The notes under the pieces were generated by a model. It was not told the DNA's origin. It searched no databases and worked only from the letters and a program-made list of their open reading frames with translations. The position numbers and the translations under genes were made by a program. DNA of 64,000 bases from an uncultured Clostridia bacterium (GTDB lineage: Bacteria > Bacillota > Clostridia > Christensenellales > Pumilibacteraceae): assembly GCA_947066105.1 (NCBI GenBank), contig CAMSYM010000008.1, positions 26,695 to 90,694 on the forward strand, written 5' to 3'. Each line of letters starts with the position of its first letter. The stretch's first letter is position 1. Shown piece after piece: positions 17,912-60,038 of this stretch.

Positions 17912-17935
17912 TTCGGGTACTTCCGTATTATTGCG

Positions 17936-18508: not shown

Positions 18509-18511
18509 AAG

Positions 18512-25530: not shown

Positions 25531-25571
25531 AATTAAGGATTCGTAATGATCGATCCCTACGGGTGATGGAG

Positions 25572-30285: not shown

Positions 30286-30316
30286 TTGACAAATCAAAAC
30301 GGGGGGGGGGTATACT
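30286..30316 (+). promoter_or_regulatory. sigmaA promoter of GH3 cluster 1 with a G10 tract in the spacer
   Basis: TTGACA (30286-30291), AATCAAAAC + G10 (19-bp spacer), TATACT (30311-30316). Confidence 0.7.
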
Positions 30317-34540: not shown

Positions 34541-34620
34541 AAACGGAAAGGCGTTGTATCGGCTTGCGTTGCGTCGTTACGCCGCTTGCGGTCGGTACGG
34601 CGCCTTTTCGTTTTATTTTT
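34541..34620 (+). terminator. Long intercistronic stem-loop (attenuator/stabiliser)
   Basis: 24-bp stem, 34541-34564 with 34590-34613, containing G-U pairs and followed by a T-rich run. Confidence 0.7.
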
Positions 34621-34659
34621 TACTTAACGGACCGAAAGCGTAACATAGGGAGCATATGT

Positions 34660-37600: not shown

Positions 37601-37722
37601 ACTTCACGCGCAAGCGCGAAAAGGAAATGCTCGGCGTCGGTCCGGCGGCGAGTGGGGCGGAGCTCGACCGTTCGACGGACGCGCCGTCGGGAGAACAGCC
37701 TGTCGACAGCGACGAAAAATAA
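34660..37722 (+). CDS. GH3 beta-glycosidase 2 (permuted), N- and C-terminal TM anchors
   Basis: EEGITLLKN, YEEGIYVGYRYYET, DSDGP, KHFAVNDQE, VITD. Confidence 0.9.
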   Translation: MDLKFIWKHKGTRAWLLTTCILLVLVLVISFVITQVPIINNSLGLVFGGERANIVEDRRDELYNREYDNKKDVLAAANEFVESVAEEGITLLKNQSNALPLGAGAKVSVFGKNSVDLVYGGSGSASGATGAARKTLYDSLKAAGIEYNPVLKSFYDDNSRSGSGRPDNPPMTSGQRLAGFAVGETPIASYEPLENSYDGYTDAAIVVFSRIGGEGFDLPRTMADDFGSDKPVSGAESADSHYLELDKNEKALLDHVKSKFGKVVVVLNTGTTMELGALDADPDIDAVLWMGLPGATGVMALGRILTGEVYPSGRTVDTWAADFTKDPTWYNSGVYGSKYGNRYLKPDGSTSDFAFVNYEEGIYVGYRYYETRSYEENKTAQTVDEWYDANVVYPFGYGLSYTDFDWEVSFDKPTGSAINADDVIKATVKVTNKTEVAGKDVVQLYYTAPYTAGGIEKSHVVLGAFAKTKLIAGGGTDTVELELKVSDMKSYDWSDANGNGFKGYELDAGKYTVTVGTDAHTAKASATYELKDGVTLREIADADGKAVAVQNRFDDVSAGIFGNDTAAAYVSRSDFDGTLPQAYLTDGERTLTQELLTKLENSIKRKYTESDDGKKWQVTGESPRTTPVDNGISFADMLYDDDGNFVGSADFDDPRWEKLLDEISLDEMKNLVGFGAFRTNAVSGVNGVVDKPLTNDSDGPSGFTSFISGATIYDTCSYQAECLLGATWNVELAYRMGEIVGEEGLVGNEKGDGMPYSGWYAPAVNIHRSPFAGRNWEYYSEDGLLSGKFAAEVIKGARTKGVYCYVKHFAVNDQETDREYNGILVWANEQAMREIYLEPFEIAVKQGKANAMMTSFNRLGMTWAGGSYELLTETLRDEWGFKGMVITDYSLNRYTYVDQMIRAGGDLFLTQDVKTFNMPDDATQVTLLRKATKNILYTVANSNIMSIKIDGYKLAVWQVVLIVIDVAVIVALAVWGVLIIYFTRKREKEMLGVGPAASGAELDRSTDAPSGEQPVDSDEK

Positions 37723-42836: not shown

Positions 42837-43037
42837 AAACCACTATATATTGTGTATATGGTGGTTTTTTATTGCGAAATTGTCACAACACCAAAAGGCA
42901 TACATTACACGCTTAGTATACAAAAAGCGCACTTTTACGGCGTTAAATTTTATTAGGCATGCGCATTTATAATGTTGACATGTGTCGGAATTTATGATAT
43001 TATTAGTAAAAAGCGAGATTGCGGAGGCGAAAATTGT

Positions 43038-45065
43038 ATGTATACGATCAAACCGGAGTCGGTTAAAACATTTGTTTTGGATAGAAATATCAAGCTTCCG
43101 CGGTTTCAAAGGAAGCAGACTTGGACGGAAAAGAAAAATTTTCAGTTATGTATAAGTTTATTTAAGCAGTATCCGTTGGGCGTTACAATATTAAGCGTTG
43201 AAGAAAAAAACGGTAAAACAATCAGATGGTTGTTAGACGGGCGTCAGAGAAGGAACGCTTTATTGCAAGTGTATGAAAATCCCGAAAATATTTATATTTG
43301 GGCGAGAAAATTTATCGGATTTAAAAATAATGATCAACCCGATGAAATAGGAGATCGTTTTTGGGAAAAAATTCAAGAATACATAGAATACGACGACATA
43401 GACAATGCCGATATCGAAGACAATAATGACGTTAACGATTATGAAAGTTCGGGCGCTTTCGTAACAGATGAGAATATTGATTTGGACGGTAATACCGGGC
43501 TGGATTTTTTGTTGGAAATAATTAAGATTTTTCATAATAAATCATTGACGAATAACGGCTTTACCAAACCGTTTGATATTTGCAAATATGTTCGAACGCT
43601 TCCTTATGCGGATAATAATCGGGGTGCCAATATGCTGTCGTCTAAAAAATTAAAGAATTTTTTGGATGAATATAGAAAGTATTGCGATTTGGAAAACTTT
43701 AATTATGAGCAAATGCAATCCTTTTATCAATTTATCGGTTCAAGATGCGATATAACGGAACCCGATAAATTAAAGCAATTTTTGGAAATGAAAAAAAGCG
43801 ATATAGTGTCGAGAATAAATCTTATAGAAAGGATAGATAATTTGTTGGCTAACAGCACAATAGGATTGATCGAAGTTAAAAATCTTTCGCCCGTGGATTC
43901 TCAAAAGATTTTTAATATAATAAACACGGAGGGCGAAAAATTGACGGCGGTTGAAGTTCTTTCCGCAAAACCTTCGTGGAATACGATAATATCCAATGTG
44001 TCCGATGAAATGAAAAATGCGGTTAACGAATTGTATGAACGAATCGGTACGAATTATGTCGACGTCGTCAAGTGGGATTTGCCTGCGACGCTTTTGCGAC
44101 GGATCGGTAATAATTTCATTGTCAAAAAATTCAGCGATTCCGCAACCGATTTTGCAAAAGAAATAACGTTTGGATTTAAATTGATAGCCGGCATTTGGAA
44201 TTTCGGCGTAAAAAAAGAAGATTATGAATCGTTGAGTATTAATCGTAATATCAATTGGGCTAACGAATATGAAGAATTGGTATACGATTTAAAAAGCATG
44301 ATTAAATTAATGGAAAGTTTTAATTATTTTGAATTTTTCAAGACATGGCGAACTTCGATCATGGAATTGACAAGCGAATCCATAGCGTTAAACTTTTTTA
44401 TAATAATGTTTCTCGATTGGAAAAGAAAAGGAAAACCGATAGGGAACAATTTAAAAGCGAAAATGTTCGGAAAGAATTGTTTAATATTATGGGATAAATT
44501 AATTTACGAGTACGTGTCGACCTTATGGCGCGGCTCTGCCGATGCGAAAATAGCGGCTAATATCGGTTCGATTAAAAACGAACCCGACGGATTGTTTACA
44601 CAGACGGAATCGAGTAAGTGGCTTCAAATATTCGATGAAATAGAATCGTCGGCAAAAATCATGGGCAATAAAATAAGCGAAGCAATGATGAAACCGATTT
44701 TATATCATTTTTACTGTTTAAAATCGATATCTGCGCCTACGGATCCTTATAGCATAGAGATCGACCATATAATTCCGCAAACGCTGTTTGAAAATTCCAC
44801 GATAAACGATAAGGAACATATTAAAGACAGTATATTCAATTTGGGTCTTTTGCCTAAAAAAGAAAACATAAGCAAAACAAATAAACGATTGATCGAAATA
44901 ACAGATGATTGGCTGAAAGATCAAATTGCGAATTATGAATTTGTCACTCCCGATCAATATCAATTTTACTCCGATATTACCAATTACAAAACGATTTTTG
45001 CACAGAGAAAACGATTATTTGCGGAAGTTTTCGGTGATTTGAGAGATCAAAAAATAAATAATTAG
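43038..45065 (+). CDS. DUF262 + C-terminal HNH (DUF1524-like) protein, GmrSD/SspE-like defence nuclease
   Basis: LPRFQR..W, LLDGRQR, FNIINTEGEKL, and IDHIIPQ...NLGLL...N...N. AT-rich relative to the flanks. Confidence 0.8.
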   Translation: MYTIKPESVKTFVLDRNIKLPRFQRKQTWTEKKNFQLCISLFKQYPLGVTILSVEEKNGKTIRWLLDGRQRRNALLQVYENPENIYIWARKFIGFKNNDQPDEIGDRFWEKIQEYIEYDDIDNADIEDNNDVNDYESSGAFVTDENIDLDGNTGLDFLLEIIKIFHNKSLTNNGFTKPFDICKYVRTLPYADNNRGANMLSSKKLKNFLDEYRKYCDLENFNYEQMQSFYQFIGSRCDITEPDKLKQFLEMKKSDIVSRINLIERIDNLLANSTIGLIEVKNLSPVDSQKIFNIINTEGEKLTAVEVLSAKPSWNTIISNVSDEMKNAVNELYERIGTNYVDVVKWDLPATLLRRIGNNFIVKKFSDSATDFAKEITFGFKLIAGIWNFGVKKEDYESLSINRNINWANEYEELVYDLKSMIKLMESFNYFEFFKTWRTSIMELTSESIALNFFIIMFLDWKRKGKPIGNNLKAKMFGKNCLILWDKLIYEYVSTLWRGSADAKIAANIGSIKNEPDGLFTQTESSKWLQIFDEIESSAKIMGNKISEAMMKPILYHFYCLKSISAPTDPYSIEIDHIIPQTLFENSTINDKEHIKDSIFNLGLLPKKENISKTNKRLIEITDDWLKDQIANYEFVTPDQYQFYSDITNYKTIFAQRKRLFAEVFGDLRDQKINN

Positions 45066-45242
45066 TATTTCGGTGCAAATAGCGGTAAATACGAAAATGT
45101 CTTTTGATGGCGATCGTTTAGTAAATACAATATACTATTATCAGTCGACAATTTTCCAAAACGCTTTTCTTTTTGAGAAAAGTGTGGTATACTTAGGTTG
45201 AATGCTCGATGTTGCGGGCATCGAAACGGATCGGAGCGGAAA

Positions 45243-45953
45243 ATGACCAAGATAGCGATAGTCGAAGACCAACGTTCGGAAGCGGAGTTGTTGAAAAGAC
45301 TGTTGAGCGAGTATGCCGAAGCGCATACCCGCGAATTTGTCGTGGAGTGGTTCGACGATCCTAAAAAGTTTTTGGACGGGTTCGACGTCGATCTCGATCT
45401 GGTGTTTTTGGATATCCAAATGCCGAATATCAACGGTATGGATGTCGCGCGCAAAATTCGCGAGCGCGATTGCGACGTAAACATAGTGTTCGTTACCAAT
45501 ATGATCCAGTACGCGGTGGAAGGCTATTCGGTGCAGGCGTCCGATTTTATAGTCAAGCCCGCCGCGCCCGCAAGCGTCAATCGCGTTATGAACAGGGCGC
45601 TTGCCGCGTCCGATCGCAACGCCGATAAAACGGTCACTATAAAAAACGCCGCCGACGGACGTACGGTCGTCGTAAAAGCGAGCGAGATCTATTATGTGGA
45701 AGGCAGCGGACACAGGATCACATATCACACGGCGCACGGCGAGTTTTCGGATTGGGGATCTATGAACGCGGTGGCGGCGGAATTACCGTCGCGCAGTTTT
45801 GCGCGCTGTCACGTGTCGTTTCTCGTCAATCTCAAATACGTGCGTGAAACTTCAAAGGATACCGTCAGGGTGTGCGACGACGTTTTGCCGTTGAGTCGCA
45901 CTCAGAAAAGCGCGTTTTTCGCCGAACTTGCCGCCTATCTCGGCGGATCGTAG
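45243..45953 (+). CDS. LytTR-family response regulator
   Basis: IVED, FLDIQMP, FVT and FIVKP receiver motifs. LytTR domain IYYVE...H...FARCHVSFLVNL. Confidence 0.92.
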   Translation: MTKIAIVEDQRSEAELLKRLLSEYAEAHTREFVVEWFDDPKKFLDGFDVDLDLVFLDIQMPNINGMDVARKIRERDCDVNIVFVTNMIQYAVEGYSVQASDFIVKPAAPASVNRVMNRALAASDRNADKTVTIKNAADGRTVVVKASEIYYVEGSGHRITYHTAHGEFSDWGSMNAVAAELPSRSFARCHVSFLVNLKYVRETSKDTVRVCDDVLPLSRTQKSAFFAELAAYLGGS

Positions 45954-45984
45954 CTCGGTAAATTTCAATGTCAAGGGATCGGTC

Positions 45985-46328
45985 ATGAAAAAATTTAAAA
46001 GCATAATAGGCGTTTTGTGCGCACGCTTGATGCTTTTCACTGTCGCAGTCGGTTGCGGCAATGCGCACGCGCCGATTTTCCCCGACGGTGGTATCGAAAC
46101 TCGCGTAACGCCGCCCGACGGCGGGGATGAGAAATATGGAGCTTTGCGGGCTTTGATAATCTCGCATTGCAGTTCGCCGCGATCGATAGAGTTACGTTCG
46201 ACGGTTCCGACATAACGGGATCGTCCTATCATGCAACGCAGGTTTGCAAAGCTTGCGCGGTAAGCATGATTAACGGGCATGGCGTGAGCTTTTTTTCGCG
46301 GTACTTCGGTGATGTTGCGGAAAAATAG
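45985..46328 (+). pseudogene. Frameshifted lipoprotein-like remnant
   Basis: Signal peptide with VAVGC lipobox in one frame. It continues as WSFAGFDNLALQFAAIDRVTFDGSDITG... in another frame from about 46137 to TAG 46328. Confidence 0.5.
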
Positions 46329-46368
46329 GGTGGGCCGTAAAGCGTTACGGCAAAAACACTGCGGATAA

Positions 46369-47739
46369 ATGGTAATGTATAATTTTTCTTCGGCGCTGTT
46401 TTGGTACAAGTTCATATTTATAACGGAGCTTATCACTGCGGAATGCACGTTCGTGTTTTTGCTCAAAGAGCGCAAAAGATTTTTATTGCGCGCCGTGCTG
46501 TCCGTTTTGGGCATGTACGGACTGACTTTTGCCGTGCCTATATTCGGATACAACGCGCTTGCGGTGTCCGCGCTTTTTTCCGCGCTGTTTGTGGCGAGCC
46601 TTGGCGCGATGAAGATATGCTTCGACGAAAAATTCGGCGTTATCCTGTTTTGCGGGATATGGGCGTACACGGTACAGCATTTTTCTTATCTTATAGGCAA
46701 CTTTATCACGACGGCGGCGGGGCTTTCGAGCGGATCGTTTTACGAATCGACCATAACGGTGTACAATGCGGGTTCGCTACTTATCGGCACAGCGGCGTTT
46801 ATAGTCGTGTACTTGGCGTCCATGTTTACCGTGCGATACATATTCCGCAACATGACCGAGATACGCATACACGGTTTCGTGCTGGTCGTGCTGTCTATCA
46901 TTTCGCTCGTGATAGAGATAGTGCTCAACGCAATAGTCGTATTTTTGCAGGTGGAAACGGTGTCGCTCACGCTGTTTGCGCTGTGCTATGTTTACGATAT
47001 TCTCGGGTGTCTGCTCACCATAGGTTTGTTGATATTTTCGCTGTGGAACAAATCGTTACAGCGCGACAAGGCGATAATGCAACTGCGGTTCGACAGGGAG
47101 CGGCAAAGCTTCGAGATACGCAAGGATAAGATAGACCGCATAAACATCATGTGTCACGATCTTAAACACCGCATACGCGAGCTGGGCGAAACGGGCTATG
47201 CGAACGACAAGCTGAAAAAGCTCGAAAGCGCCATAAAAAGCTACGACGCGCGGTTCCGCACGGGCAACGACGCGTTGGACGTGATACTTTCGGACGCGAA
47301 TGTCCAGTGCGAAAAGAGCGGCATACAGTTTGTGTGCATGGCGGACGGATCGTTGCTTGCGCATATGGAGACCGATCATATATATTCGCTGTTCGACAAT
47401 GCCATAAACAACGCTATCGACGCGGCGGGCAATGTCGACGAACCCGAAAAGCGATACGTGTACGTTTCGGTCGCGCGCAAAAACGGCATGATAACGGCGC
47501 ATGTGGAAAACTGTTTCGTAAACGACGGTAAGCTGACGTTCGAGAACGGCGTGCCGCAAACTACCAAGAACAACGCCGACGAGCTTCACGGCTACGGCAT
47601 GCGCAGTATCAAGCATATAGTCGAGCTGTACGGCGGCGGGTTGTCTGTCAAGGCTGACGGTGATATTTTTATGCTGGATATATTTATCCCGTTTGTCGAG
47701 CGGGCGGACGATACCAAACTTGAAACGAAAACGACCTAA
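46369..47739 (+). CDS. GHKL sensor histidine kinase (AgrC/LytS-like)
   Basis: Multiple TMs, HDLKH, TGNDALDVIL, LFDNAINNAID and HGYGMRSI motifs. Confidence 0.92.
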   Translation: MVMYNFSSALFWYKFIFITELITAECTFVFLLKERKRFLLRAVLSVLGMYGLTFAVPIFGYNALAVSALFSALFVASLGAMKICFDEKFGVILFCGIWAYTVQHFSYLIGNFITTAAGLSSGSFYESTITVYNAGSLLIGTAAFIVVYLASMFTVRYIFRNMTEIRIHGFVLVVLSIISLVIEIVLNAIVVFLQVETVSLTLFALCYVYDILGCLLTIGLLIFSLWNKSLQRDKAIMQLRFDRERQSFEIRKDKIDRINIMCHDLKHRIRELGETGYANDKLKKLESAIKSYDARFRTGNDALDVILSDANVQCEKSGIQFVCMADGSLLAHMETDHIYSLFDNAINNAIDAAGNVDEPEKRYVYVSVARKNGMITAHVENCFVNDGKLTFENGVPQTTKNNADELHGYGMRSIKHIVELYGGGLSVKADGDIFMLDIFIPFVERADDTKLETKTT

Positions 47740-47781: not shown

Positions 47782-47843
47782 GGTATCGGAATCACGCCCG
47801 ATACCGTTTTTTGCGTGATAAATAAATTTCAACGGGAGAGTGT

Positions 47844-49469
47844 ATGAAAAAACTGTCGAAGATCCTATTGTCGACGCTCGTCGCGGTCTTGCTCGGCTTT
47901 TCGTTCGCGGCGTGCGGCGGAAGCCGGCTCACTGCGATAGAGATCGTGTCCGATACGACCGAATTCGTAGCGGGCGACGTGATAAGCACGGAGTTTGTGT
48001 CGGTAAACGCCAAGTATGCCGACGGGAGCAGTCGCACGGTCACGGGCTGGACTGCCGATATTACGGGCGCGCTCGAACAGGGCGAGCATACCGTAACTAT
48101 TACATATACCGAAAACGGCGTGACAGTCAGCGCGACGCTCGACGTTACTGTGTCGGAGACGGAGCATGTTCATGAGTTCGGAGCGGAATGGCAAAGCGAC
48201 GACGTCGCGCACTTTCGCGTTTGCGCTTGCGGTGCGCGTACGGACGAAGCGGCGCATATCCGCGCCGGCATAACGGTGACAGCCGAAGCGGACTGCATTA
48301 CGGACGGCACGCGCGCTTATGTTTGCGCCGTTTGCGATCGCAAGGGCGAGGAAAAGTTAGCCGCGCTCGGTCACAGCTTTAATATAGACCGTCTCGACGA
48401 CAACTCGCATTGGAAGGATTGCGCGCGTTGCAACGCATCGTCGCAAAAGCTCGCGCATGATTTTATCCTATGCGTAGATAACGTAAAGACGGAATGGTTT
48501 GACGGCGATACTTTTACGCTCGACGGGGCGACCGCGCATAAGGAGTGCGACTGCGGATATGCGAGTGAGCTGGATATTGCTACGGTCGTTTCGTCCAAAA
48601 CGGAATTGAACGTGACCGACGGCGGCGAATTGACATTGACTTGCGGCGAATTGACGACGACGATAAATATAGACGTCAAACGTCGCGAGATAATCGGCAT
48701 CGAAATCGATCCGTCGACAAAAAACGTTTACTTGATCGGCGAAGCGTTCGGCGGCGGCACGCTCGTGATAACGTACAACAATTCTTCTACGACTACAACC
48801 GAATTGACCGTCGACATGATAAAAGGCTTTGATACGAACAGCGTCGGCGAAAGAACGTTTGAAGTAGAATACGACGGAAAAAAGTGCGAGCTTGCGGTCA
48901 AAATAGGATACGACGCGCAGTCCGGCGCATATGAGCTGGGTACGGAAAAGCGTGCGTATAAATTGCAAGCGGAAGATGAAACGTATGTTGATATGAGCGG
49001 CGCGGCGTTGCAAAAAGGCACTGCGACCAATAAATTCGAAAATCAGGCAAAGGACGGGAACAATCAGTTATATCCCAACGGCGCCGAAGGATACAGTACT
49101 TGCAATATCACTAAACCGGGCAATAAAATAGTGATAAAATTCTATTCGCGTTCGGCGGGAAAATTCAAGCTCGGTCTACGTGCGCAATCGGGCAATAAAG
49201 CAGGGAAAAGCGATGTTGCCGTCGACGCGGCATTTTCGGTAAAAGTCAACAGTTCGCAAAAAAAGATAAACGGCAATATTGCGAAGGCGAGCTTGTCCGG
49301 TAGTAATTGGCAAAATATGACTAATTGGACAACGCTCGAAGATATCGCGGGCGAGTTGGATATTGTTGTCGGTTTGAATACGATCGAGTTCGCTTATCTC
49401 GGCACGTTAGACGGTACCGGCGATCTGCGTTTCCCCAATATCGACTACTTTATTATTACATTGATTTGA
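47844..49469 (+). CDS. Lipoprotein with Ig-like (Big_3-type) domains, Cys/His modules and C-terminal CBM-like domain
   Basis: Lipobox FAAC. Ig-like YxxGExFxGGTLVITY..GFDT. C-terminus homologous to that of 58512..60038. Confidence 0.7.
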   Translation: MKKLSKILLSTLVAVLLGFSFAACGGSRLTAIEIVSDTTEFVAGDVISTEFVSVNAKYADGSSRTVTGWTADITGALEQGEHTVTITYTENGVTVSATLDVTVSETEHVHEFGAEWQSDDVAHFRVCACGARTDEAAHIRAGITVTAEADCITDGTRAYVCAVCDRKGEEKLAALGHSFNIDRLDDNSHWKDCARCNASSQKLAHDFILCVDNVKTEWFDGDTFTLDGATAHKECDCGYASELDIATVVSSKTELNVTDGGELTLTCGELTTTINIDVKRREIIGIEIDPSTKNVYLIGEAFGGGTLVITYNNSSTTTTELTVDMIKGFDTNSVGERTFEVEYDGKKCELAVKIGYDAQSGAYELGTEKRAYKLQAEDETYVDMSGAALQKGTATNKFENQAKDGNNQLYPNGAEGYSTCNITKPGNKIVIKFYSRSAGKFKLGLRAQSGNKAGKSDVAVDAAFSVKVNSSQKKINGNIAKASLSGSNWQNMTNWTTLEDIAGELDIVVGLNTIEFAYLGTLDGTGDLRFPNIDYFIITLI

Positions 49470-49481
49470 TCGGAGATATAT

Positions 49482-52400
49482 ATGAATTTCAAGACGTTTT
49501 GGAAAAAAAGAAGCTTTAAGGCGTGGTTTTGCTCGTTCATACCCGTGCTTGCTTTGACGCTTGCCGTCGTGCTTGTGCTTACGTGCAATACCTTTTTGTA
49601 TCAAACGATAAACGCCGTGTTGGGCGGCGAGCGTCGCGTGTTAAAAAGCGGTGACCCGTCCAAGTATCAGTATTACACCACGGAGTACAAGGGCAAGGAC
49701 GACGTGCTTGCGGCGGCGAACGCGCTCAACGAGCGCATAGTAGAAGAAGGCGCGGTGCTTTTGAAAAACGAAAATAACGCATTGCCCGTCGCGGCGGGCG
49801 CAAAGGCTACCGTTTTCGGCAAGAATTCGGTCAACGCGGTTTACGGCGGTTCGGGTTCCAACGCGGGCGCGGGCGGCGACGACGGCAAATGCACTCTTTA
49901 CGATAGTTTGGAAAGCGCGGGAATCGAGTATAACGACGCGATGAAGGCGTTTTACGACAGCGACAAGCGATCGGGCGACGGTCGTCCCGCATCGCCCGAC
50001 ATGAATTCGACCATAACGGGTTTGACCGGCTTTGCCACGGGCGAAACGCCTGCCGACAGGTACGACGATACGGTACGCGCGTCGTGGAAGGATTACAACG
50101 ATCTGGCGATAGTGTTTATCTCGCGCATAGGCGGCGAGGGCTTCGATCTGCCGCGCTCCATGTTTTGGGACGGCAAGGGTTATCAAAACTGGAACGGCGA
50201 TTCGCTCATACCCGGCGCGCGTAACAAGGACGATCACTACTTACAGCTCGATAAAAACGAAACGGACATGATAAGCGTCGCCGCGCAAAACTTCGATAAG
50301 GTCGTTGTCGTGCTTAACTGCCCCACGAGCATGGAACTCGGATTTTTGGACGATCCCGATCATTACGCGTACAGCGACAAAATAAAAGCGTGCTTATGGA
50401 TAGGCACGCCCGGCAATTCTGGCATGGCGGCGCTCGGCAGGATACTGACGGGCAAAGTTAATCCGAGCGGGCGGACGGCGGATATTTACGCGCGCGACTT
50501 TAAAAAAGACCCGACCTGGAACAACTTCGGCAATAATCTCGAAGAGGGCGGCAATCAGTACGTCGACGAGAACGGCGAAAAGCGCAGTGCGTACTTCGTG
50601 CATTACAGCGAGGGCATTTACATAGGCTACCGCTATTATGAAACGCGTGCGCTTACGGAATCGAATAACGGCAACGGCGGGTGGTATAAGGACAACGTGG
50701 TGTTCCCGTTCGGTTACGGGCTGAGCTATACAGACTTTACGTGGAGCGTCGAGCGTACTTCGCATTCCGAAAGCTTCGACGGCGACGACACGATCACCGT
50801 CGACGTAAAGGTCGTCAACGTCGGCGACGTTGCGGGCAAGGACGTAGTACAGCTTTACTATTCCGCGCCGTACTATTCCGATAGCGGTATCGAAAAATCG
50901 CACGTCGTTTTGGGCGCGTTCGCAAAGACGAAGTTGTTGCAGCCCGGCGAGAGCGATACAGTTGCGCTCGAACTTTCCGCGCGCGATATGGCGAGCTACG
51001 ACTATGCGGACGGTAACGGCAACGGGTTTAAGGGCTACGAACTCGAACACGGCAACTATACGCTGTACGTTGCGCGCGATTCGCACGACCGTTCCGCGCC
51101 AGTCACGCTTTCGCTCGGCGCGGACGTCAAGTACGAAACGGACGGCAAAACGGAGACGCCCGTTAAAAATCTTTTCGACGACGTAAGCTCGCGCGTGACC
51201 GAGTACATGAGCCGCGACGACTTTGAAGGAACGTTTCCGCAAGAACCGTCGGCGGAGCTTCGCACGCTCAAAGCGAGCGATATACAAAAGCTGAATTACA
51301 CGTTAAAGGATAAGGCGAGCGATCCGTGGTACAGTACGGATATGCCCGATCAAAGCGCGTCGGAGCTTACGCGCGATCAAACAAAGATCAAGCTTTACGA
51401 CCTTATAGGCAAGGACTACGAACACGAGCTGTGGGACGAATTGCTCGATCAATTGACTGTTTCGCAAATGCGCTCGCTCATAGAGATAGGCAACTACCAT
51501 ACCGAAGCGATAGTCGGTATAGACAAACCCAAAACCACCGATCCCGACGGACCTATGGGCTACTCGCTGTTCATGGGCGACGACGCGGTGTATAAGACCT
51601 GCTACTATGCGGGCGAATCGCTCATGGGTAGCACGTTCAACGTCGAACTGGCGGAAGAGTTCGGCAAGATGATAGGCGACGAGTCGCTCATCGGCGATCG
51701 CAAGGGCGACAAGCGCACGTATTCGGGCTGGTACGCGCCCGCGTGCAATCTTCACCGCAGTCAGTTCGGCGGACGCAACTTCGAGTATTACAGCGAGGAC
51801 CCCGTGCTTTCGGCTAAAATGGCTGTGGGCGTTATCCAAGGCGCGATGAGCAAGGGCGTATATACTTATCTCAAACATTTTGTCATGAACGATCAGGAAA
51901 CCAACCGCGACACCAACGGTATAGCGGTGTGGGCTAACGAGCAGACCATGCGCGAGCTGTACTTTTTACCGTTTGAAAAGGCGGTCAAGGACGGCGGCAC
52001 TACCGCGATGATGAGTTCGTTCAACCGCATAGGCTTTACCTGGGCGGGCGGAAATCACACGCTGTTGACAAAGCTTCTGCGCGACGAGTGGGGCTTTAAG
52101 GGCATGGTGATAACCGATTACAACCTGCAACAGTACATGAACGTCGACCAAATGATCCGCGCGGGCGGCGACGTCAACCTGAGCCAAAGCAAATCGCTCA
52201 AAAATTACGATACCGCGACTTCGGTCACGGCTATACGCAAAGCTGCCAAGAACATTCTGTACACGGTAGCCAACAGCAACGCCATGAACGGCATGGGCGA
52301 AGGCAACGTTTGGGCGTACGCCGCGCCCGTATGGTTCATAGCTATGTGGGTCGTGTTTGCCGTGCTTGCGGCGGGATTTGTCGCATGGGGCGCGGCGGTG

Positions 52401-53768
52401 ATAGCGAAAATAGCCGTCGAGTACAATACGGGCGTAAAGAGCGGCGTTATAGTACCGCCCGCAAAAAAGCAACGCGTCAAAGATCCCGACTTTAAAATGA
52501 GCAAGCTCGCTAAGATATTCATAGCGGCGACGGGCGGCGCGGCGGTCGCGCTTGCGGTGACGGCGATAGCGCTTTTGGCTACGCCCGCCGAGCAAAGCGG
52601 CGTGCCGCAGGATTACAGACCATACGTCGGCGGGATCACTTTGACTTTCGACAACATGCCCGTTACGGGCGGAGTAGTCACCGTCGAGCGCGGCGGCGAC
52701 ACTCACCGCATAACGGCGCTCGTCGATACGTACGGCATGGAATCGGGCGGGGTCGTATACGAAAGCTCCGACGAGAATATAGCGGCGGTCGGAGCGGACG
52801 GCACGATCGACGCGAGAGCGGTCGGCGAATGTTCGGTCACCGTTACGGTAGTCAACGATAAGTCGGTGTACGGCGCTTTGCTTGTGCGCGTTACCGACGG
52901 CGAGCTTGACGGCACGGCGCACGTCGTGACGGTGGTGGGCGGAAGCGCGAATTTGGCGCAGGCGACTGCGGGAACGACGGTAATACTCACGCCCGAAACT
53001 CGTACGGGCATGCGCTTCGTCGGCTGGGAATTCGACTGTGAAGTCGAACAAAGCGGAAACCTGTTCCGCATGCCGTCCGCGCCCGTTACCGTAACGGCTA
53101 AGTACGAGAAGATAGGTTACAAACTGACGCTCGACGGCGCGACGTTCGCGGACGGCGAAAGCGAAAAAACTCTGTTGTACGAGGACGGTTTCCCGCAAGA
53201 CATGCGTTATACGCTCGACGACGGCGAGCTGTTTTTCGGCTGGCGCGACAAGGTGAACGGCAAACGCGTGACCGATCTTACCATGCCCGCGCGCGACATG
53301 ACGATACAGCCGATGATCCTTGCCAAGGGCGATGCGCTCGTCATGGCGGAAAACGGATTCGATTACGGTTCGGGTACGGGCGGCAATGCGACCGATACCG
53401 ATATCGACGGCGTAGCCGCAAAGCGCATAGAGATAGCGGCGGGGCAAAGCCTTGTGCGCATCAAAAACGGCGGAGTCACCGGCGGCGGCGATAACGACGT
53501 GTACGTCGGCATCACTCTGCGCAATCCCAACGAGTTCGATATAACTTTGGAATATCAGGTGGAGTATTACGGCGTAGTGTGGGGTACGGGCAAGGTGACA
53601 GTCAAGGCGGGCGAAACGGCAACATATGCCATAGTCGTAAACGGACTGGACGCAACGGCGACGCCTTATCACAGAATAGTTTTGGAAGCGGCGACGGAAC
53701 AAACGGCAATGCTCGATTTTTGCGGGTTTATTTACGAAACCGAAGGAGAGAACAATGAAAATGCGTAA
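49482..53768 (+). CDS. GH3 beta-glycosidase 3 (permuted) with TM hairpin, Big_2-like, InlB-B-repeat-like and beta-sandwich domains
   Basis: EEGAVLLKNE, YSEGIYIGYRYYET, TDPDGP, KHFVMNDQE, VITD. Two TMs after the catalytic core. Confidence 0.9.
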   Translation: MNFKTFWKKRSFKAWFCSFIPVLALTLAVVLVLTCNTFLYQTINAVLGGERRVLKSGDPSKYQYYTTEYKGKDDVLAAANALNERIVEEGAVLLKNENNALPVAAGAKATVFGKNSVNAVYGGSGSNAGAGGDDGKCTLYDSLESAGIEYNDAMKAFYDSDKRSGDGRPASPDMNSTITGLTGFATGETPADRYDDTVRASWKDYNDLAIVFISRIGGEGFDLPRSMFWDGKGYQNWNGDSLIPGARNKDDHYLQLDKNETDMISVAAQNFDKVVVVLNCPTSMELGFLDDPDHYAYSDKIKACLWIGTPGNSGMAALGRILTGKVNPSGRTADIYARDFKKDPTWNNFGNNLEEGGNQYVDENGEKRSAYFVHYSEGIYIGYRYYETRALTESNNGNGGWYKDNVVFPFGYGLSYTDFTWSVERTSHSESFDGDDTITVDVKVVNVGDVAGKDVVQLYYSAPYYSDSGIEKSHVVLGAFAKTKLLQPGESDTVALELSARDMASYDYADGNGNGFKGYELEHGNYTLYVARDSHDRSAPVTLSLGADVKYETDGKTETPVKNLFDDVSSRVTEYMSRDDFEGTFPQEPSAELRTLKASDIQKLNYTLKDKASDPWYSTDMPDQSASELTRDQTKIKLYDLIGKDYEHELWDELLDQLTVSQMRSLIEIGNYHTEAIVGIDKPKTTDPDGPMGYSLFMGDDAVYKTCYYAGESLMGSTFNVELAEEFGKMIGDESLIGDRKGDKRTYSGWYAPACNLHRSQFGGRNFEYYSEDPVLSAKMAVGVIQGAMSKGVYTYLKHFVMNDQETNRDTNGIAVWANEQTMRELYFLPFEKAVKDGGTTAMMSSFNRIGFTWAGGNHTLLTKLLRDEWGFKGMVITDYNLQQYMNVDQMIRAGGDVNLSQSKSLKNYDTATSVTAIRKAAKNILYTVANSNAMNGMGEGNVWAYAAPVWFIAMWVVFAVLAAGFVAWGAAVIAKIAVEYNTGVKSGVIVPPAKKQRVKDPDFKMSKLAKIFIAATGGAAVALAVTAIALLATPAEQSGVPQDYRPYVGGITLTFDNMPVTGGVVTVERGGDTHRITALVDTYGMESGGVVYESSDENIAAVGADGTIDARAVGECSVTVTVVNDKSVYGALLVRVTDGELDGTAHVVTVVGGSANLAQATAGTTVILTPETRTGMRFVGWEFDCEVEQSGNLFRMPSAPVTVTAKYEKIGYKLTLDGATFADGESEKTLLYEDGFPQDMRYTLDDGELFFGWRDKVNGKRVTDLTMPARDMTIQPMILAKGDALVMAENGFDYGSGTGGNATDTDIDGVAAKRIEIAAGQSLVRIKNGGVTGGGDNDVYVGITLRNPNEFDITLEYQVEYYGVVWGTGKVTVKAGETATYAIVVNGLDATATPYHRIVLEAATEQTAMLDFCGFIYETEGENNENA

Positions 53769-56700
53769 GAACAAAATGTACAAAGCGACCGCGTCGATTT
53801 TTGCGGCGGCGCTTATCGCGACAAGCGCGTTCGGAGTTGCTCCCGCAATACGCGTTGCGGCAAATAATGCGGGGGGGGGTATGCCTTCCGAAATTTCCGA
53901 AAGCTCCGCAAGCGCGAAAACGTTGAAAAAGAGTCCCGTCAACGGAAATTATTATTTCGCGGATTACGACAGCTCGCAGGAAGCGTTCGAAGCGGGCGAC
54001 AGGCTTAACAAGGATATAATATCCGAAGGCGCGACACTGCTCAAAAACGAAAACTCTCTGCCGCTCAAAGCGGGCGCAAAGGTAAGTATTTTCGGAAAAC
54101 GCTCGGCTAACAACCTGCGTTACGGCGGCGCGGGTTCGGGCGCGGGCAGCGGCGGCGCGAAGATAACTCTCGCGCAATCGTTGGAACGCGCGGGGCTTTC
54201 CGTAAACGCCGCATTGACGTCGTTTTACAATAACAATAACCAGTCGGGATCTGCGGGCGGCGATCTTAACAGTTACGGTGTTTATGCCGGACCCAAAAAC
54301 GGGTTCGAAACGCCGGTAGCCAAGCTCAAACAGTACGTAAACGAAAGCACGTATTCCGAGTACGGCGACGCGGCTATCATAGTGATCTCGCGCGCGGGAA
54401 GCGAAGCGGGCGACCTTACCAAGGGCATGGCGACGGGATACGGCGGCGACGGCAGGCTAAACGGCACTCCCGTTTCGGGCGCGCGCAATGCCGACGATCA
54501 TTACTTACAGCTCGATCAAAACGAGACCGATCTCATCAAGTACGTGGGCGATCGTTTCGACAACGTTATAGTGTTGTTTAACACAGGCTCGCAAATGGAA
54601 GTTGGATTTTTGGACGACGAAAATCACTATGCGTATCACAAAAATATCAAGGGCGCGATGTGGATAGGATTCCCCGGCAACGGCAACGGCTTGGAAGCCG
54701 TGGGCGAGATATTGGCGGGCAAGATAAGTCCGAGCGGACACACCGTAGATACTTACGCGCGCGACTTCAAGCTCGACCCTACGTGGTCGAACATGCCGAC
54801 GTATACAAATAATTTGTTCGTATACTCCAACTATTCGAGCAAGTCGTTCGTCAACTACAAGGAAGGCATTTATTCGGGCTACCGTTATTACGAGACGCGC
54901 GGGTTCACCGAAGGCGACGACGCGTATGTCAGCGGCGGCGAAAATACCGACGTTATCCACGGCACGAACACTACCGAGTGGGATGATTGGTACGACGCGC
55001 ACGTAGTGTATCCGTTCGGCTACGGCTTGTCGTACACTTCGTTCGACTGGGAGTTCGTAAGCTCCACATTGCCCGACGACGGCGTTATAGACCGCGACGA
55101 CGAAATATCCGTTTCGGTCAAGGTGACCAACACGGGCGAATACGCGGGCAAGGACGTAGTTCAGCTTTATTATACCGCGCCGTATACTGCGGGCGGGATA
55201 GAAAAGTCGTACGTCGCGCTTTGCGGGTATGCAAAGACGGGCGTGCTGGCGCCAGACGAAAGTCAGGTCGTCACGATGTCGGTCAAGGCGCGCGACATGG
55301 CGAGCTACGATCATAACGACGCCAATAAAAACGGATTTAAGGGTTATGAGCTGGAAGCGGGCGATTACGTTTTGAACGTAAGTCGCAACGCGCACGACGC
55401 GGTCATAAAAAAGGCGTTCAAGGTGGCGGGAGACGGCTTTAAGTACGCAGAGAACGAGATCGGCGTAATAGTCGAAAACCGCTTCGCCGATGCGGAAGCG
55501 GAAAACACAGTATATCTGAGCCGCAAGGATTTTGCGGGGACGTTCCCCAAAGAGCCGACGGCGGAAGAGCGTATCGCGGCGCAGACGGTGACGGACAAAG
55601 TCGCCGAAACGTCGGACAGCAACAAGATAGTTGCGGGCGACGATCCGTCCGATCCGTACTATGCGAGCGAGATGCCCGTAACGGGCGCGGACAACGGCGT
55701 AAAACTTGTCGATCTTTACGGACTCGATTACGAGAGCGCGGACTGGGAATTATTTCTCGATCAGCTTTCCGTCGGCGACAAGACGACGCGCGGCACTATG
55801 ACCAACGCCGTTTGGGAAAGCGGCTGGACGAGCTTCGGTAACTCGGCGCTCGGCATACCCGATTTTCACCATGAGGACGGTCCGAGCGGTATCGCGGGGC
55901 GGTACGTCAGCGGCGGTAACTATACCAACTTCGCAAGCGAAACGGTCACCGCATCCACTTGGAATAAAGAGCTTGCCGAACGCAAGGGGAATATCATAGG
56001 CAATCAGGGCTTGTTCGGCAACGGCTCGTCGCACGTGGAAGCGCTGTACGCGCCCGCTTGCAATATCCACCGCAGTCCGTTCGGCGGGCGTAACTTCGAG
56101 TATTTTTCGGAGGACGCGTATTTATCGGGCGAGATGGCGGGCAACATCGTCGCGGGCTGTAACGAAAAGGGCATGATAACCTTTGTTAAGCATTTTGCGG
56201 TCAACGATCAGGAATCCAAGCGCGACACGCTGTTGACCTGGGCGAACGAGCAGACTATACGCGAAGTGTATTTGCGTCCGTTCCAGATCTGCGTGGAAAA
56301 ATACGAGTCGCACGGCATGATGTCTGCGCTCAATAATCTCGGCGCGGTATGGACGGGCGGACATTACGAACTTTTAACCGACGTACTGCGCGGCGAGTGG
56401 GGCTTCGACGGCGTGGTCATCACCGATTACGTGCAAGGTCGCGGACAGCTTAACGGCAATATGGCGTTGCGGGCGGGCGGGGATATTTTGCTCGCGACGA
56501 GCGGCTCGGTGCAAAACCCCGCGGGACTCGATAAGCCCACGACCGTCGCTAATCTGCGCCGTGCGACGCATAATCTGTATTACAATATAGTCAACTATAC
56601 CGCGGCTTTCAATAAGAGCGTGATAAACGCGATGGGCGCGTACGACGGCGGCACGCTCGCGCCTGCCATCGATTCGATGGATTACGAGCAGTCGGTAGCC

Positions 56701-58482
56701 GGCGTATCGCTAAACGACGGCGGCTCGCCGAGCGACGTGACGTACGCTTTAAAGGACGGAAGCGAACTTCCCGACGGACTGACTTTGCGCGCGGACGGAG
56801 TGATATCGGGTTCGGCGGCAATGCAGTCGGAGGCGGCGGAATTTACGGTAGTCGCCAAGTACGGGTTTGCCGAGCGCGAAGCGACGTTCACTTTGCCCGT
56901 AGTCGACAAAGATCTTTCGGTCATTTACATCAAACAGCAAAATACAGTCGACGGGTTTGTCGGCGCGGAGCTTAACGAGCGCGTCGACTGGGCATACACG
57001 CTCGACGGCAAAAAACACGATATAAAGTACGGTCTGGCGGACGGGTGCCAAATGCCGTCGGGCTTGACGCTCGGTACGGACGGCGTTATATCGGGCAAAT
57101 CCGAATTGCCGTTCACCGATTACGAAGTGACGGTGCGCGCCGAGAGCGACGGGTTGTTGCCCATGTCCGTCAAGCTCGTTTTGAATATGTACAACGAGCA
57201 ACGCTTCAAGCCGAGCGCGCTCAAAAACGCCAAGCTCGGCACGCCGTATGCGGAAAGCGTTGTCGTCGGCGCGGACGGAACGGCAAAGTACGCATTGCGC
57301 ACGGGCGACAGTCTGCCGCAGGGCTTGACGCTTACCGAGCGCGGCTATATAACGGGAACGCCGACGGAAGCGGGGCTTAAAACGTTTACGGTCATTGCGT
57401 CGGGCGCATACGTCAAAACGCAGGAGCAAACGTTCTCGCTTGACGTAGGCATTCGTTACGATAATTTCACGCCCGCCGACGGTACGGTCGGAGCGAAATA
57501 CGAAACGTATATCAATTTCGCTCAGGGCGCGACCGACGTCAAATACAGTCTTACGGACGGCGCGTTGCCGCGCGGTATCACTCTCACGCGCGACGGGCTT
57601 TTAACGGGAACGCCGACGGAAAGCGGAAACTTCGCGTTTACCGTGACCGCTCGGTCGGGCGCTCTTTCGGACAGCGTTACCGCCAATCTGCATATCGCCG
57701 CCGCGGCGTCGCATACGGCGTATTATGCGGGATTGGGCATAGGCATAGCCGCGATCGTCATAGCGACGGCGGGTTGCGTCGTGTATTTGCTCGTTATAGA
57801 CAAGCGCAATTACGCGGACGGCAGCAAAGCCAAGCTCAACAAGACGTTTATCAAGATAGCGTCGCCGATAGTGGGCGTGATGCTCGTTTGCGTCATAACG
57901 CTTGGCGCGGTCCTTGCGCCGACGGCGGCTGCGGGCAAGCTCGAAACATATACGTTCGAAGCGGAATATGTGTATCTCGACGAATTCATGGGCGCGGGTA
58001 TAAGCAATTCAGGCGAAGGCGTTAACAACATTTACGGCGACGGCGGCGAAAACGACATAAACAAGGGTTGGAGCAACGGTTATTTCTTGGGAAATACGTA
58101 CGCCAAAAATTCGATAACGTTCGAGATAACGTCGGATAAAGCGGCGGACGGCAAGCTTGTTTTACGGCTTGCGTCCGAGCTGGGCAATCTCGCGCTCGAT
58201 AACAGCGTGTTCGGACTGGAAGTCAACGGAAAGGAAGTGGAATACAGCTTGACCGTTGCCAATTCGGCGGCAGGCTCGTACGACTTTGCCGATTATCCGA
58301 TCTCGGCTGTCGTAAAGCTGGGCGAAGGCGTAAACACCGTCACGCTCACGATAAAAGACAACACGTTAAAGGACGGCAACAGCATAGGCGCGCCGCTCAT
58401 CGACTGCATACGCATAACGACGGACGCTACGCTCACTTGGTCGCCGCTGACCGATAATCCCGACAACCGCGGCAAGATATAA
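53755..58482 (+). CDS. GH3 beta-glycosidase 4 (permuted) with four Ig-like (He_PIG-type) repeats, TM hairpin and C-terminal CBM-like domain
   Basis: SEGATLLKNE, YKEGIYSGYRYYET, HEDGP, KHFAVNDQE, VITD. Repeats LPxGLTLxxDGxISGTP. Confidence 0.9.
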   Translation: MKMRKNKMYKATASIFAAALIATSAFGVAPAIRVAANNAGGGMPSEISESSASAKTLKKSPVNGNYYFADYDSSQEAFEAGDRLNKDIISEGATLLKNENSLPLKAGAKVSIFGKRSANNLRYGGAGSGAGSGGAKITLAQSLERAGLSVNAALTSFYNNNNQSGSAGGDLNSYGVYAGPKNGFETPVAKLKQYVNESTYSEYGDAAIIVISRAGSEAGDLTKGMATGYGGDGRLNGTPVSGARNADDHYLQLDQNETDLIKYVGDRFDNVIVLFNTGSQMEVGFLDDENHYAYHKNIKGAMWIGFPGNGNGLEAVGEILAGKISPSGHTVDTYARDFKLDPTWSNMPTYTNNLFVYSNYSSKSFVNYKEGIYSGYRYYETRGFTEGDDAYVSGGENTDVIHGTNTTEWDDWYDAHVVYPFGYGLSYTSFDWEFVSSTLPDDGVIDRDDEISVSVKVTNTGEYAGKDVVQLYYTAPYTAGGIEKSYVALCGYAKTGVLAPDESQVVTMSVKARDMASYDHNDANKNGFKGYELEAGDYVLNVSRNAHDAVIKKAFKVAGDGFKYAENEIGVIVENRFADAEAENTVYLSRKDFAGTFPKEPTAEERIAAQTVTDKVAETSDSNKIVAGDDPSDPYYASEMPVTGADNGVKLVDLYGLDYESADWELFLDQLSVGDKTTRGTMTNAVWESGWTSFGNSALGIPDFHHEDGPSGIAGRYVSGGNYTNFASETVTASTWNKELAERKGNIIGNQGLFGNGSSHVEALYAPACNIHRSPFGGRNFEYFSEDAYLSGEMAGNIVAGCNEKGMITFVKHFAVNDQESKRDTLLTWANEQTIREVYLRPFQICVEKYESHGMMSALNNLGAVWTGGHYELLTDVLRGEWGFDGVVITDYVQGRGQLNGNMALRAGGDILLATSGSVQNPAGLDKPTTVANLRRATHNLYYNIVNYTAAFNKSVINAMGAYDGGTLAPAIDSMDYEQSVAGVSLNDGGSPSDVTYALKDGSELPDGLTLRADGVISGSAAMQSEAAEFTVVAKYGFAEREATFTLPVVDKDLSVIYIKQQNTVDGFVGAELNERVDWAYTLDGKKHDIKYGLADGCQMPSGLTLGTDGVISGKSELPFTDYEVTVRAESDGLLPMSVKLVLNMYNEQRFKPSALKNAKLGTPYAESVVVGADGTAKYALRTGDSLPQGLTLTERGYITGTPTEAGLKTFTVIASGAYVKTQEQTFSLDVGIRYDNFTPADGTVGAKYETYINFAQGATDVKYSLTDGALPRGITLTRDGLLTGTPTESGNFAFTVTARSGALSDSVTANLHIAAAASHTAYYAGLGIGIAAIVIATAGCVVYLLVIDKRNYADGSKAKLNKTFIKIASPIVGVMLVCVITLGAVLAPTAAAGKLETYTFEAEYVYLDEFMGAGISNSGEGVNNIYGDGGENDINKGWSNGYFLGNTYAKNSITFEITSDKAADGKLVLRLASELGNLALDNSVFGLEVNGKEVEYSLTVANSAAGSYDFADYPISAVVKLGEGVNTVTLTIKDNTLKDGNSIGAPLIDCIRITTDATLTWSPLTDNPDNRGKI

Positions 58483-58511
58483 AAAGTATTTTACGGGAGA
58501 TCGCAGATATC

Positions 58512-60038
58512 ATGAAAAACAGGTTCAAAAAGCTTATGCTCGCAATATTCGCTATGACGGCGGTCGCAATGTGCGTGTTGGCGCTGGCGGCGTGCAGCGG
58601 TGGATATGTGGAAAAGCTGTCCGTAAAGGGCAAGATGTACTACATGGTCGGCGACGAGTTTGCCGGTGCGACGCTGACTGTCACGTATTCGGACGGCAGG
58701 CGCGAGCAGGTGGACGTCACTGCCGATATGGCGAACGGGTTCGATACGACGGTCGCAGGCAACAAAACGATAGCGGTCGTTTACGGCGGCAAGACGGTCG
58801 CCTTTGATATAACCGTGTCGGAGCTGTACGCGTCGGGCATATCCGTCGCCGACGGCGGCAAGACCGAATATCTTATCGGAACGCAATATGCGGACGGCGA
58901 CGCGAGTATAAACGTTTCGTATACCGACGGCACGGTGCAGACCGTTCCGATAACGGGCGGAATGATCTCCGGGCTGGACACGACTGTCGAAGGAGAAAAA
59001 ACGGTCAGCGTCAAGTATGGAATGCTGGACACGGCGTATACCGTGACGGTGCGCTATCCGTACGTCGTTTCGGCTACCGTCGCAAGCTCGACCAAAAGCG
59101 TGTACCGCGTGGGCGACGAGTTCGGCGGCGTGACGCTGGACGTGGTTTACGAGGACGATACGAGCGGCTCGGTGACCTTGACCGATATCGAGAGAGTAAA
59201 GGGCTTCGATACTACGGGCATAGGTCCGCGCACCGTGCGCGTCACGTACCGCAACCGTACGGTAAGTTACGACATACAAGTGCTTAAAGCGATAGCGGGC
59301 GTTACCGTAAAGAGCAGCGTCGGCATGTACGCAAAGGGCGACGCGTTCAAGGGCGCGGAGCTTGCGGTGGAATATGCCGACGGCACGAGCGAAACCGTTG
59401 CGGTCACGCCCGAAATGCTGACGGAGTTCGATACTATGCAAGTGGGCGATCGGACCGTCAAGCTGATGTTTGAAAACAGGGAGCTTACGTTCGGCATAAC
59501 CGTTTACGGCAAGTTCGCGGACGACGGCGGCGACAACAAGATACAGGTCGAAGACGGCGATCTCGTCGATATGAGCGGCGCGCAATTGCAAAGCGGCGCG
59601 GCAAGCAAGTTTGAAAGCACGACAAAAAATGCGCAAAACGAAGAATATTCAAACGGCGCGGAAGGATCGAGTACGGCGAATATTTCCGTTCAAGGCAATA
59701 AGATAGTTATCCGCTTTATCGCCGAGCGCGCCGGCAAGTATAAGCTGGGCATGCGCGCGCAGTCGGGCAGCGACGCCGGCAAAAGCGACGTCAAAGTCGC
59801 CGACGCATTCGATATATATGTCAACGGCGACATAAAGACGGCGAGCGGCGTCATACAAAAGGGGAGCGCCACGGGCGTCAACTGGAAGGATATGACTAAC
59901 TGGACGTTGCTCGACGATCTCGTCGGCGAGATCGATATCGTCGCGGGACTTAACGAGATAGAGCTCGCGTTCAAGGGCGGCACGGCGCAGACCATGCGGT
60001 TCCCCAATATCGACTATTTCGTCCTTACCGCGGTGTGA
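58512..60038 (+). CDS. Lipoprotein with four Big_3-type repeats and C-terminal CBM-like domain
   Basis: Lipobox LAAC. Repeats YxVGDEFxGATLTVTYSDG..GFDT. C-terminus ends RFPNIDYF. Confidence 0.75.
   Translation: MKNRFKKLMLAIFAMTAVAMCVLALAACSGGYVEKLSVKGKMYYMVGDEFAGATLTVTYSDGRREQVDVTADMANGFDTTVAGNKTIAVVYGGKTVAFDITVSELYASGISVADGGKTEYLIGTQYADGDASINVSYTDGTVQTVPITGGMISGLDTTVEGEKTVSVKYGMLDTAYTVTVRYPYVVSATVASSTKSVYRVGDEFGGVTLDVVYEDDTSGSVTLTDIERVKGFDTTGIGPRTVRVTYRNRTVSYDIQVLKAIAGVTVKSSVGMYAKGDAFKGAELAVEYADGTSETVAVTPEMLTEFDTMQVGDRTVKLMFENRELTFGITVYGKFADDGGDNKIQVEDGDLVDMSGAQLQSGAASKFESTTKNAQNEEYSNGAEGSSTANISVQGNKIVIRFIAERAGKYKLGMRAQSGSDAGKSDVKVADAFDIYVNGDIKTASGVIQKGSATGVNWKDMTNWTLLDDLVGEIDIVAGLNEIELAFKGGTAQTMRFPNIDYFVLTAV

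Follow-up and report, generated by a model that had tools for sequence, protein, structure and literature searches.

A poly-G tract near the start of a family 3 glycoside hydrolase gene in an uncultured mouse gut Clostridia bacterium, a candidate slipped-strand ON/OFF site

We analyzed a 64,000-nucleotide stretch of DNA, hereafter called the window, from an uncultured Clostridia bacterium of the family Pumilibacteraceae (contig CAMSYM010000008.1 of assembly GCA_947066105.1, positions 26,695 to 90,694). In this window, a homopolymer of nine guanines (G9) lies near the 5' end of GH3-4, a gene encoding a domain-permuted family 3 glycoside hydrolase of 1,575 amino acids. We consider it reasonably probable that the G9 tract is a slipped-strand hypermutable site able to turn GH3-4 OFF and back ON, with the gene mostly ON in vivo. 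This reading is based on the anatomy of the site, an anomaly in its composition, a single natural allele with ten guanines (G10), and an unstable sister tract upstream of a paralogous gene; what we infer beyond these observations is that the tract changes by slippage, that switching is reversible and frequent, that OFF cells lose the enzyme, and that the site has any adaptive value. The result amounts to a reasonable lead but falls short of a discovery, and the evidence for switching at G9 itself is thin, consisting of one low-depth contig.

The nine guanines occupy positions 53871..53879 of the plus strand (aataatgc GGGGGGGGG tatgcc; AATGC GGGGGGGGG TATGCC at 53866 to 53885) and constitute a candidate slipped-strand frameshift site. 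An earlier, model-made reading of the DNA (the original prediction) had described a G9 tract about 40 codons into a 1,575-amino-acid gene, currently in frame and just after the signal peptide. The first part was confirmed exactly, since the tract covers codons 39 to 42 (GCG GGG GGG GGT, read as A-G-G-G) of the plus-strand open reading frame (ORF) at 53755..58482, which starts with ATG and was assigned to GH3-4 from ORF, Pfam, and hydropathy analyses. The second part fits the N terminus as judged by inspection and hydropathy. A basic segment (MKMRKNKMYK) is followed by hydrophobic residues 11 to 34, where the Kyte-Doolittle profile peaks, and cleavage is possible after VAA (...RVAA/NNAGGGMPSE), so that the predicted signal peptide comprises residues 1 to 36 (53755..53862, plus strand). 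The N terminus of GH3-4 is thus a probable Sec signal peptide, with the tract a few residues past the predicted cleavage site. A ribosome-binding site, GGAGAG, is located at 53745..53750 on the plus strand, 4 nucleotides 5' of the ATG at 53755.

The consequences of each tract length were computed by editing G9 in silico. With G6, G9, or G12 the frame is kept and a protein of 1,574 to 1,576 amino acids is encoded. With G8 or G11 translation runs into TGA at 53924..53926 (plus strand), giving a product of 56 to 57 amino acids, and with G7 or G10 it runs into TAA at 54006..54008 (plus strand), giving a product of 83 to 84 amino acids. Every out-of-frame length therefore truncates GH3-4 within 84 codons. 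In the mechanism that we propose, slipped-strand mispairing at replication would add or remove one G; cells carrying G9 (and likewise G6 or G12) would retain the frame and make the full 1,575-amino-acid enzyme, predicted to be secreted and membrane anchored, whereas the G8/G11 and G10/G7 alleles would terminate at 53924 and 54006, respectively, and the enzyme would not be made. A premature stop in GH3-4 may also lower expression of the downstream Big_3 gene through polarity. The ON (G9) allele would dominate in the gut, and OFF alleles would arise and occasionally reach high frequency.

The same anatomy was considered in terms of recoding, in which the DNA is fixed and the G run acts as a signal for transcriptional slippage or programmed ribosomal frameshifting. 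Long homopolymers can cause RNA polymerase slippage, and in the G10 and G7 alleles an ATG at 53867 to 53869 enters the enzyme frame and opens a 1,538-amino-acid ORF without the signal peptide (MRGGGMPSE...), which would give recoding a possible product. However, at G9 the main ORF is in frame as it stands, which makes recoding unnecessary; each of the two other frames meets a stop within 45 codons, and neither encodes anything recognizable; no Shine-Dalgarno sequence precedes the ATG at 53867; and a contig from an RNA-labelled run (X15) also reads G9. We regard recoding as very improbable. A further methionine codon, that of Met43 (ATG 53880), stands directly 3' of the tract, and no Shine-Dalgarno sequence was visible ahead of it either; re-initiation at Met43 or at ATG 53867 as a designed route to a cytoplasmic enzyme was rejected for this reason.

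The tract is also anomalous in composition. As the original prediction had noted, glycine is mostly encoded by GGC in the genes of the window (62%, against 8.8% for GGG). The codon pair GGG-GGG occurs only once among 99 Gly-Gly pairs, and this one is the G9 site. Likewise, the choice GGG-GGG-GGT is unique among the seven Gly-Gly-Gly tripeptides of the window genes, the other six being written with GGC and GGA codons and one GGG in total. Counts of G runs in the window were 586 for G3, 73 for G4, 2 for G5, 0 for G6 to G8, 1 for G9, and 3 for G10; the longest C run was 6, and the G+C content was 52.5%. Under a third-order Markov model of the window, none of 30 simulations produced a G run of 8 or more (expectation, about 0), versus four observed, and the G9 tract is far beyond chance. 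All four long tracts are runs of G on the plus strand, on which nearly all genes of the window are encoded and which is G-rich throughout. G9 has, in addition to this over-representation, the hypermutable length (a G/C run of 7 to 8 or more) and the expression-altering position by which phase-variable loci are recognized.

We then compared tract length among public mouse gut or faecal metagenome runs by means of Logan contigs, which are consensus sequences in which minority variants are hidden. Among 13 informative runs, 12 carried G9 without an indel or a contig break (X1, X2, X3, X6, X10, X11, X12, X13, X14, X15, X16, and X19). These 12 runs span nine studies, and their flanks show up to about 5% difference to the window. 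The remaining informative run, X24, comes from a tenth study and carries G10, that is, the OFF frame of 84 amino acids, in a contig otherwise identical to the window over 53760 to 53894 (135 nucleotides). Three further runs were left out of the 13, namely X23, whose contig starts 5 nucleotides past the tract, and two RNA runs without coverage of the site. G9 was found as well in an independent assembly (L007) that differs from the window contig at 118 positions over 12.8 kb, and five strain variants of the GH3-4 protein in public assemblies, one of them the exact protein of the window, are all 1,575 amino acids long and all contain NNAGGGMPSE. The original prediction had named two outcomes that would speak against it, a tract that is always G9 and a tract interrupted in relatives; X24 reads G10, and no interrupted tract occurred in any strain examined. 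A scan of JGI metagenome contigs with a gapped pattern allowing any tract length returned 0 matches, and this collection appears not to contain the species.

These data bear directly on whether G9 is an artefact of sequencing or assembly, such as a homopolymer miscall or the poly-G artefact of two-color chemistry. The assembly in which our look-up placed the window, GCA_950096665.1 with contig CATNAW010000005.1, is metagenome derived and homopolymers are error prone, which would make such an artefact conceivable. Against it stand the recurrence of the same G9, with matching flanks on both sides, in 12 independent runs and a second assembly, the intact reading frame, and the full length of all five protein strain variants. 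An artefact is effectively refuted.

Several results weigh against a switch at G9, and we set them out together. G9 was read in 12 of the 13 informative runs, in the source assembly, and in the second assembly, with no contig break even at a depth of 24 to 32x. The promoter tract described below varied among the same runs in which the coding tract stayed G9. The G10 allele of X24 is the sole variant, on a contig of 465 nucleotides with a word depth of 7.3x, from a run of unknown library type. The known strains are about 98 to 99% identical in the GH3-4 protein, so that conservation of the tract among them proves nothing. By exact look-up in the protein collection, none of the predicted OFF peptides (for G8 and G10, with three alternative starts each) and no product starting at Met43 was found. 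Lastly, Campylobacter jejuni, which provides the closest model of poly-G switching, lacks mismatch repair, and if mismatch repair is present here, rates could be far below those of C. jejuni. The claim that G9 is a frameshift switch was partly supported. It fits the anatomy, namely a 5' coding position, a dispensable linker, and a one-G change leading to products of 56 to 84 amino acids, whereas the samples gave it little variation to draw on, 12 of 13 runs being G9 and the sole G10 being of low depth. The uniformity of the coding tract is expected if OFF alleles are usually selected against in the gut, and it is equally expected of a mutational hot spot under purifying selection.

More variation was seen at the companion tract. 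The original prediction had paired G9 with a G10 tract in a promoter, and this tract is indeed present at 30301..30310 (plus strand), in the spacer between TTGACA (30286 to 30291) and TATACT (30311 to 30316), about 140 nucleotides 5' of the paralogue GH3-1. The promoter-like spacer measures 19 nucleotides at G10, 18 at G9, and 17 at G8; our consensus promoter scan allows spacers of 16 to 18 nucleotides only and so missed this pair. In the runs used for the coding tract, the promoter tract was G9 in X1 and X16 and G10 in X2, X3, X11, and X12. In X6 a spanning contig had G11 and a second contig ended at the tract, in X14 the tract was unassembled, with contigs ending at 30303 and restarting at 30314, and in X10, X13, X19, and X24 no contig crossed it. 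A length difference between populations (G9/G10/G11) is therefore clear at this locus, and the contig method can see length changes, because the promoter tract reads differently across samples. We conclude that slippage does occur in this organism at poly-G tracts of such a size. The promoter tract is probably a spacer-length expression switch or rheostat, as judged from its placement between the two hexamers. The coding tract is far more uniform than the promoter tract across samples, and the evidence of instability is stronger for the promoter G10 than for the coding G9.

The two loci resemble each other in their surroundings. The coding G9 is framed by TTGCGG-N19-TATGCC (53854 to 53885), the same geometry as TTGACA-N19-TATACT (30286 to 30316), and the immediate flanks are alike (caaat-aatgc-Gn-tatgcc at the coding tract and caaatcaaaac-Gn-tatact at the promoter tract). 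This likeness may be a coincidence or may reflect a shared origin. An internal promoter at the coding tract was rejected, the resemblance being taken as coincidence, since each hexamer matches the consensus at 3 of 6 positions and the promoter scan found none there.

The other two long tracts are G10 runs in copies of a repeat element, at 25685..25694 (plus strand; copy 1, 25646 to 25727), in a convergent intergenic region, and at 26143..26152 (plus strand; copy 2, 26104 to 26185), 458 bp downstream of copy 1. Both copies lie between a Tex-like gene on the plus strand and a DUF4097 gene on the minus strand, which converge on them, and they are 99% identical over 82 nucleotides. The 82-nucleotide element has the layout ...CTCGTTTCGGTCGAGATGAT-Gn-CGATGTATCAC...TTGTCATCCTGAGCAA, and further copies at 8203 to 8220 and 25895 to 25912, both on the minus strand, have G4 and G5, respectively, where these two have G10. 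The two repeat G10 tracts probably represent one event followed by local duplication, and they have no obvious control role. In metagenome contigs, the word depth of 25560 to 26180 reaches hundreds to thousands, versus 3 to 30 for the flanks. This region, together with 1640 to 1860 and 8120 to 8300, is a mosaic of short, very high-copy dispersed repeats with many alternative junctions; such intergenic mosaics resemble miniature inverted-repeat transposable elements or repetitive extragenic palindromes and share common motifs such as TTGTCATCCTGAGCAACGCGAAGGATCTC. The repeat element gave 0 matches in the JGI metagenome contigs.

It follows that a G run in this genome can grow to 10 without lying at a switch position. 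As a description, the original prediction was right to assign a slippage-prone site to each GH3 cluster, but half of the four long G tracts belong to copies of a repeat, so such tracts are not confined to control points. A partly mutational origin of the tracts is favored because these two G10 tracts are in a high-copy repeat without an obvious control role. Accordingly, G9 may be a non-adaptive mutational hot spot, in which a short Gly-rich linker drifted to a G run, a slippage bias expanded the run to an equilibrium length of G9 to G10, and the run is tolerated because the linker is dispensable. It would then be a liability and not a switch, and G10 and G8 alleles such as that of X24 would be ordinary null mutants removed by selection, with no benefit from bet-hedging. 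The near universality of G9 across samples accords with this explanation, as does the expansion to 10 without functional selection that is indicated by half of the long tracts lying in a high-copy repeat of a 3'/3' intergenic region whose other copies have G4 or G5. Besides, Bayliss et al. see mutational drivers, and not selected rates, behind the modal G9/G10 lengths (PMC3401435). On the other side, two of the three independent long-G loci occupy sites at which tract length governs expression, one being a promoter spacer and the other a 5' coding region, and both belong to paralogous surface GH3 genes; moderate G runs are strongly purged elsewhere in the window; and if the tract were purely harmful, a synonymous interruption with GGC should be favored, whereas none was seen in any strain. 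We regard the hot-spot explanation as possible but rather unlikely.

A comparison with homologues places the tract in a variable part of the protein. A protein search with the N-terminal 161 amino acids of GH3-4 returned two distant homologues but not the cluster of GH3-4 itself, so that the absence of OFF products from its results is uninformative. The closest homologue (P0001), which is 65% identical over the 161-amino-acid query, has TLGNA--T at the site, encoded by CTCGGCAATGCGACC. In two others (P0002, encoded on L002, and the locus L003 of a metagenome-assembled genome; 52 to 54% identical), the linker segment is absent. No poly-G was found at this site in the closest homologues (52 to 65% identity), and a search of the genome collection yielded only the 54%-identical L003 and an unrelated Flavobacterium match. 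The tract thus sits in a non-conserved, probably unconstrained linker, and an extra or missing glycine should be tolerated because the linker is absent or different in the closest homologues. The tract is evolutionarily recent, since these homologues lack poly-G at the site, and this absence at 52 to 65% identity is a further point in favor of a mutational hot spot. L002, a metagenome contig, and L003 derive from the same related species (52%-identical orthologue). The split orthologue on L002 was considered as a second slippage site and rejected, because the split is due to a 49-bp deletion (6619 to 6620 of L002, corresponding to about 3120 to 3168 of L003).

The predicted product of GH3-4 carries both GH3 catalytic domains, with the C-terminal domain placed first. 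Pfam matches were PF01915 (GH3_C) at residues 94 to 376 (E value, 3e-21), PF14310 (Fn3-like) at residues 467 to 544, and PF00933 (GH3_N) at residues 695 to 920 (E value, 8e-30). They are followed by three He_PIG Ig-like domains, two hydrophobic (transmembrane) segments near residues 1321 to 1396, and a C-terminal domain of about 180 amino acids without a Pfam match. According to Pfam, four paralogous GH3 enzymes in the window share the same permuted order (GH3_C, Fn3-like, and then GH3_N) plus Ig-like repeats, including GH3-1 (30457..33768) and the paralogue at 34564..37722, whose domain order is that of GH3-4. Immediately upstream of GH3-4 lies the paralogue GH3-3 (1,428 amino acids; 49482..53768, plus strand), and the two are probably co-transcribed, as suggested by the 14-nucleotide overlap of the GH3-3 stop with the GH3-4 start. 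A Big_3-domain protein of 508 amino acids (58512..60038, plus strand) is encoded 29 nucleotides past the GH3-4 stop. GH3-4 is expressed in vivo, because contigs of runs labelled as RNA or metatranscriptome hold parts of the gene; one of them, in X15, covers the tract. The region from 45198 to 60038 appears operon-like in its later part, with a Big_3 protein (47844..49469), GH3-3, GH3-4, and the second Big_3 protein (58512..60038); ahead of this group, 45198..47739 encodes a LytTR response regulator and a GHKL histidine kinase.

Among known systems, the coding tract most resembles the poly-G/C loci of C. jejuni (cj1139c, cj0031, and capA), with which it shares an intragenic poly-G on the coding strand, a bimodal spectrum of run lengths, and a one-G change acting as an ON/OFF frameshift. 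Surface or glycan-related targets and poor conservation of the tracts per locus between lineages are further common features (PMC3401435). In C. jejuni, the switching rate per division is 2e-4 to 1.2e-3 for G9 tracts and 1e-4 to 4e-3 for G7 to G11 tracts, and the set of phase-variable genes of this species (phasome) shows modal G9/G10 lengths, a dearth of G5 to G8, and poly-G on the coding strand in 80% of tracts (PMC3401435). The two settings differ in that C. jejuni is a pathogen of 31% G+C with measured switching rates, whereas the present organism is a mouse gut commensal of 52.5% G+C whose tract reads ON in nearly all samples. The target is also of another kind, with a GH3 glycoside hydrolase here in place of glycosyltransferase, capsule, or flagellar genes.

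Promoter-spacer homopolymer switches are known for porA and opc of Neisseria meningitidis and for the fim genes of Bordetella. The likeness to these concerns the sister tract at 30301..30310 and not the coding G9: the tract lies between the -35 and -10 elements, its length sets the spacer, and it is naturally polymorphic. Unlike in those systems, the observed G9 to G11 all give longer-than-optimal spacers. Another parallel for the coding tract is the C7 tract of glpK in Mycobacterium tuberculosis, at which a homopolymer frameshift in a metabolic gene is reversible; a paper by Vargas et al. is cited in a review (PMC11868660). GH3-4 and glpK have in common a G/C homopolymer in a metabolic-type gene unrelated to virulence, reversible loss of function being the feature of glpK. 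The glpK tract differs in being shorter and in affecting a cytoplasmic enzyme of an organism without mismatch repair, with drug tolerance as the documented benefit. Bacteroides glycan-utilization loci with invertible SusC/SusD-type promoters likewise show a gut commensal stochastically varying its surface glycan machinery (PMC11868660), but they belong to another phylum and operate by site-specific DNA inversion through recombinases, not by repeat slippage.

The mechanism proposed for G9 is that of a textbook contingency locus, and the candidate novelty is mild and lies in where it would operate, on carbohydrate-active enzymes of a gut commensal that is not a pathogen. We found no paper on phase variation by simple sequence repeats in gut Clostridia. 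Most descriptions of slippage phase variation concern pathogens, and the known switches of gut commensals are largely invertible promoters; a commensal switching or tuning its surface glycosidases through poly-G tracts would bring carbohydrate foraging in the microbiome within the range of contingency-locus biology. According to a 2025 review, genomes with several phase-variable loci appear to be confined to pathogens, which the review treats as an open question with possible database bias (PMC11868660). A wider, tentative, and in our view doubtful possibility is a poly-G phasome spanning several loci, as in Campylobacter, in which the coding G9 of GH3-4 and the promoter G10 of GH3-1 would independently switch or tune surface GH3 clusters and so create combinatorial heterogeneity in glycan foraging or antigens. 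If so, it would be an instance of multi-locus simple sequence repeat phase variation in a non-pathogenic gut Firmicute and would bear on the restriction of phasomes to pathogens. The purposes that the original prediction had suggested for combinatorial phase variation, immune or phage evasion and nutrient bet-hedging, are compatible with the layout and are speculation. Besides, tracts of this kind make genes look like pseudogenes and break contigs when metagenomes are assembled, and they can confound comparisons of gene content between strains.

Some other features of the window were recorded. Long ORFs are found on both strands of one region, at 14793 to 17939 and 18149 to 19711 on the plus strand (without Pfam matches) versus 14760..16289, 16286..17911, and 18512..20653 on the minus strand. 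A BspA-type leucine-rich-repeat surface protein of 1,497 amino acids (LRR_5; E value, 2e-168) is encoded at 2683 to 7176; its exact product is not in the protein collection, and the contig is on record. A GmrSD-like restriction enzyme is encoded at 42972..45065. The window is chromosomal, with rpsL, rpsG, fusA, and tuf at its 3' end.

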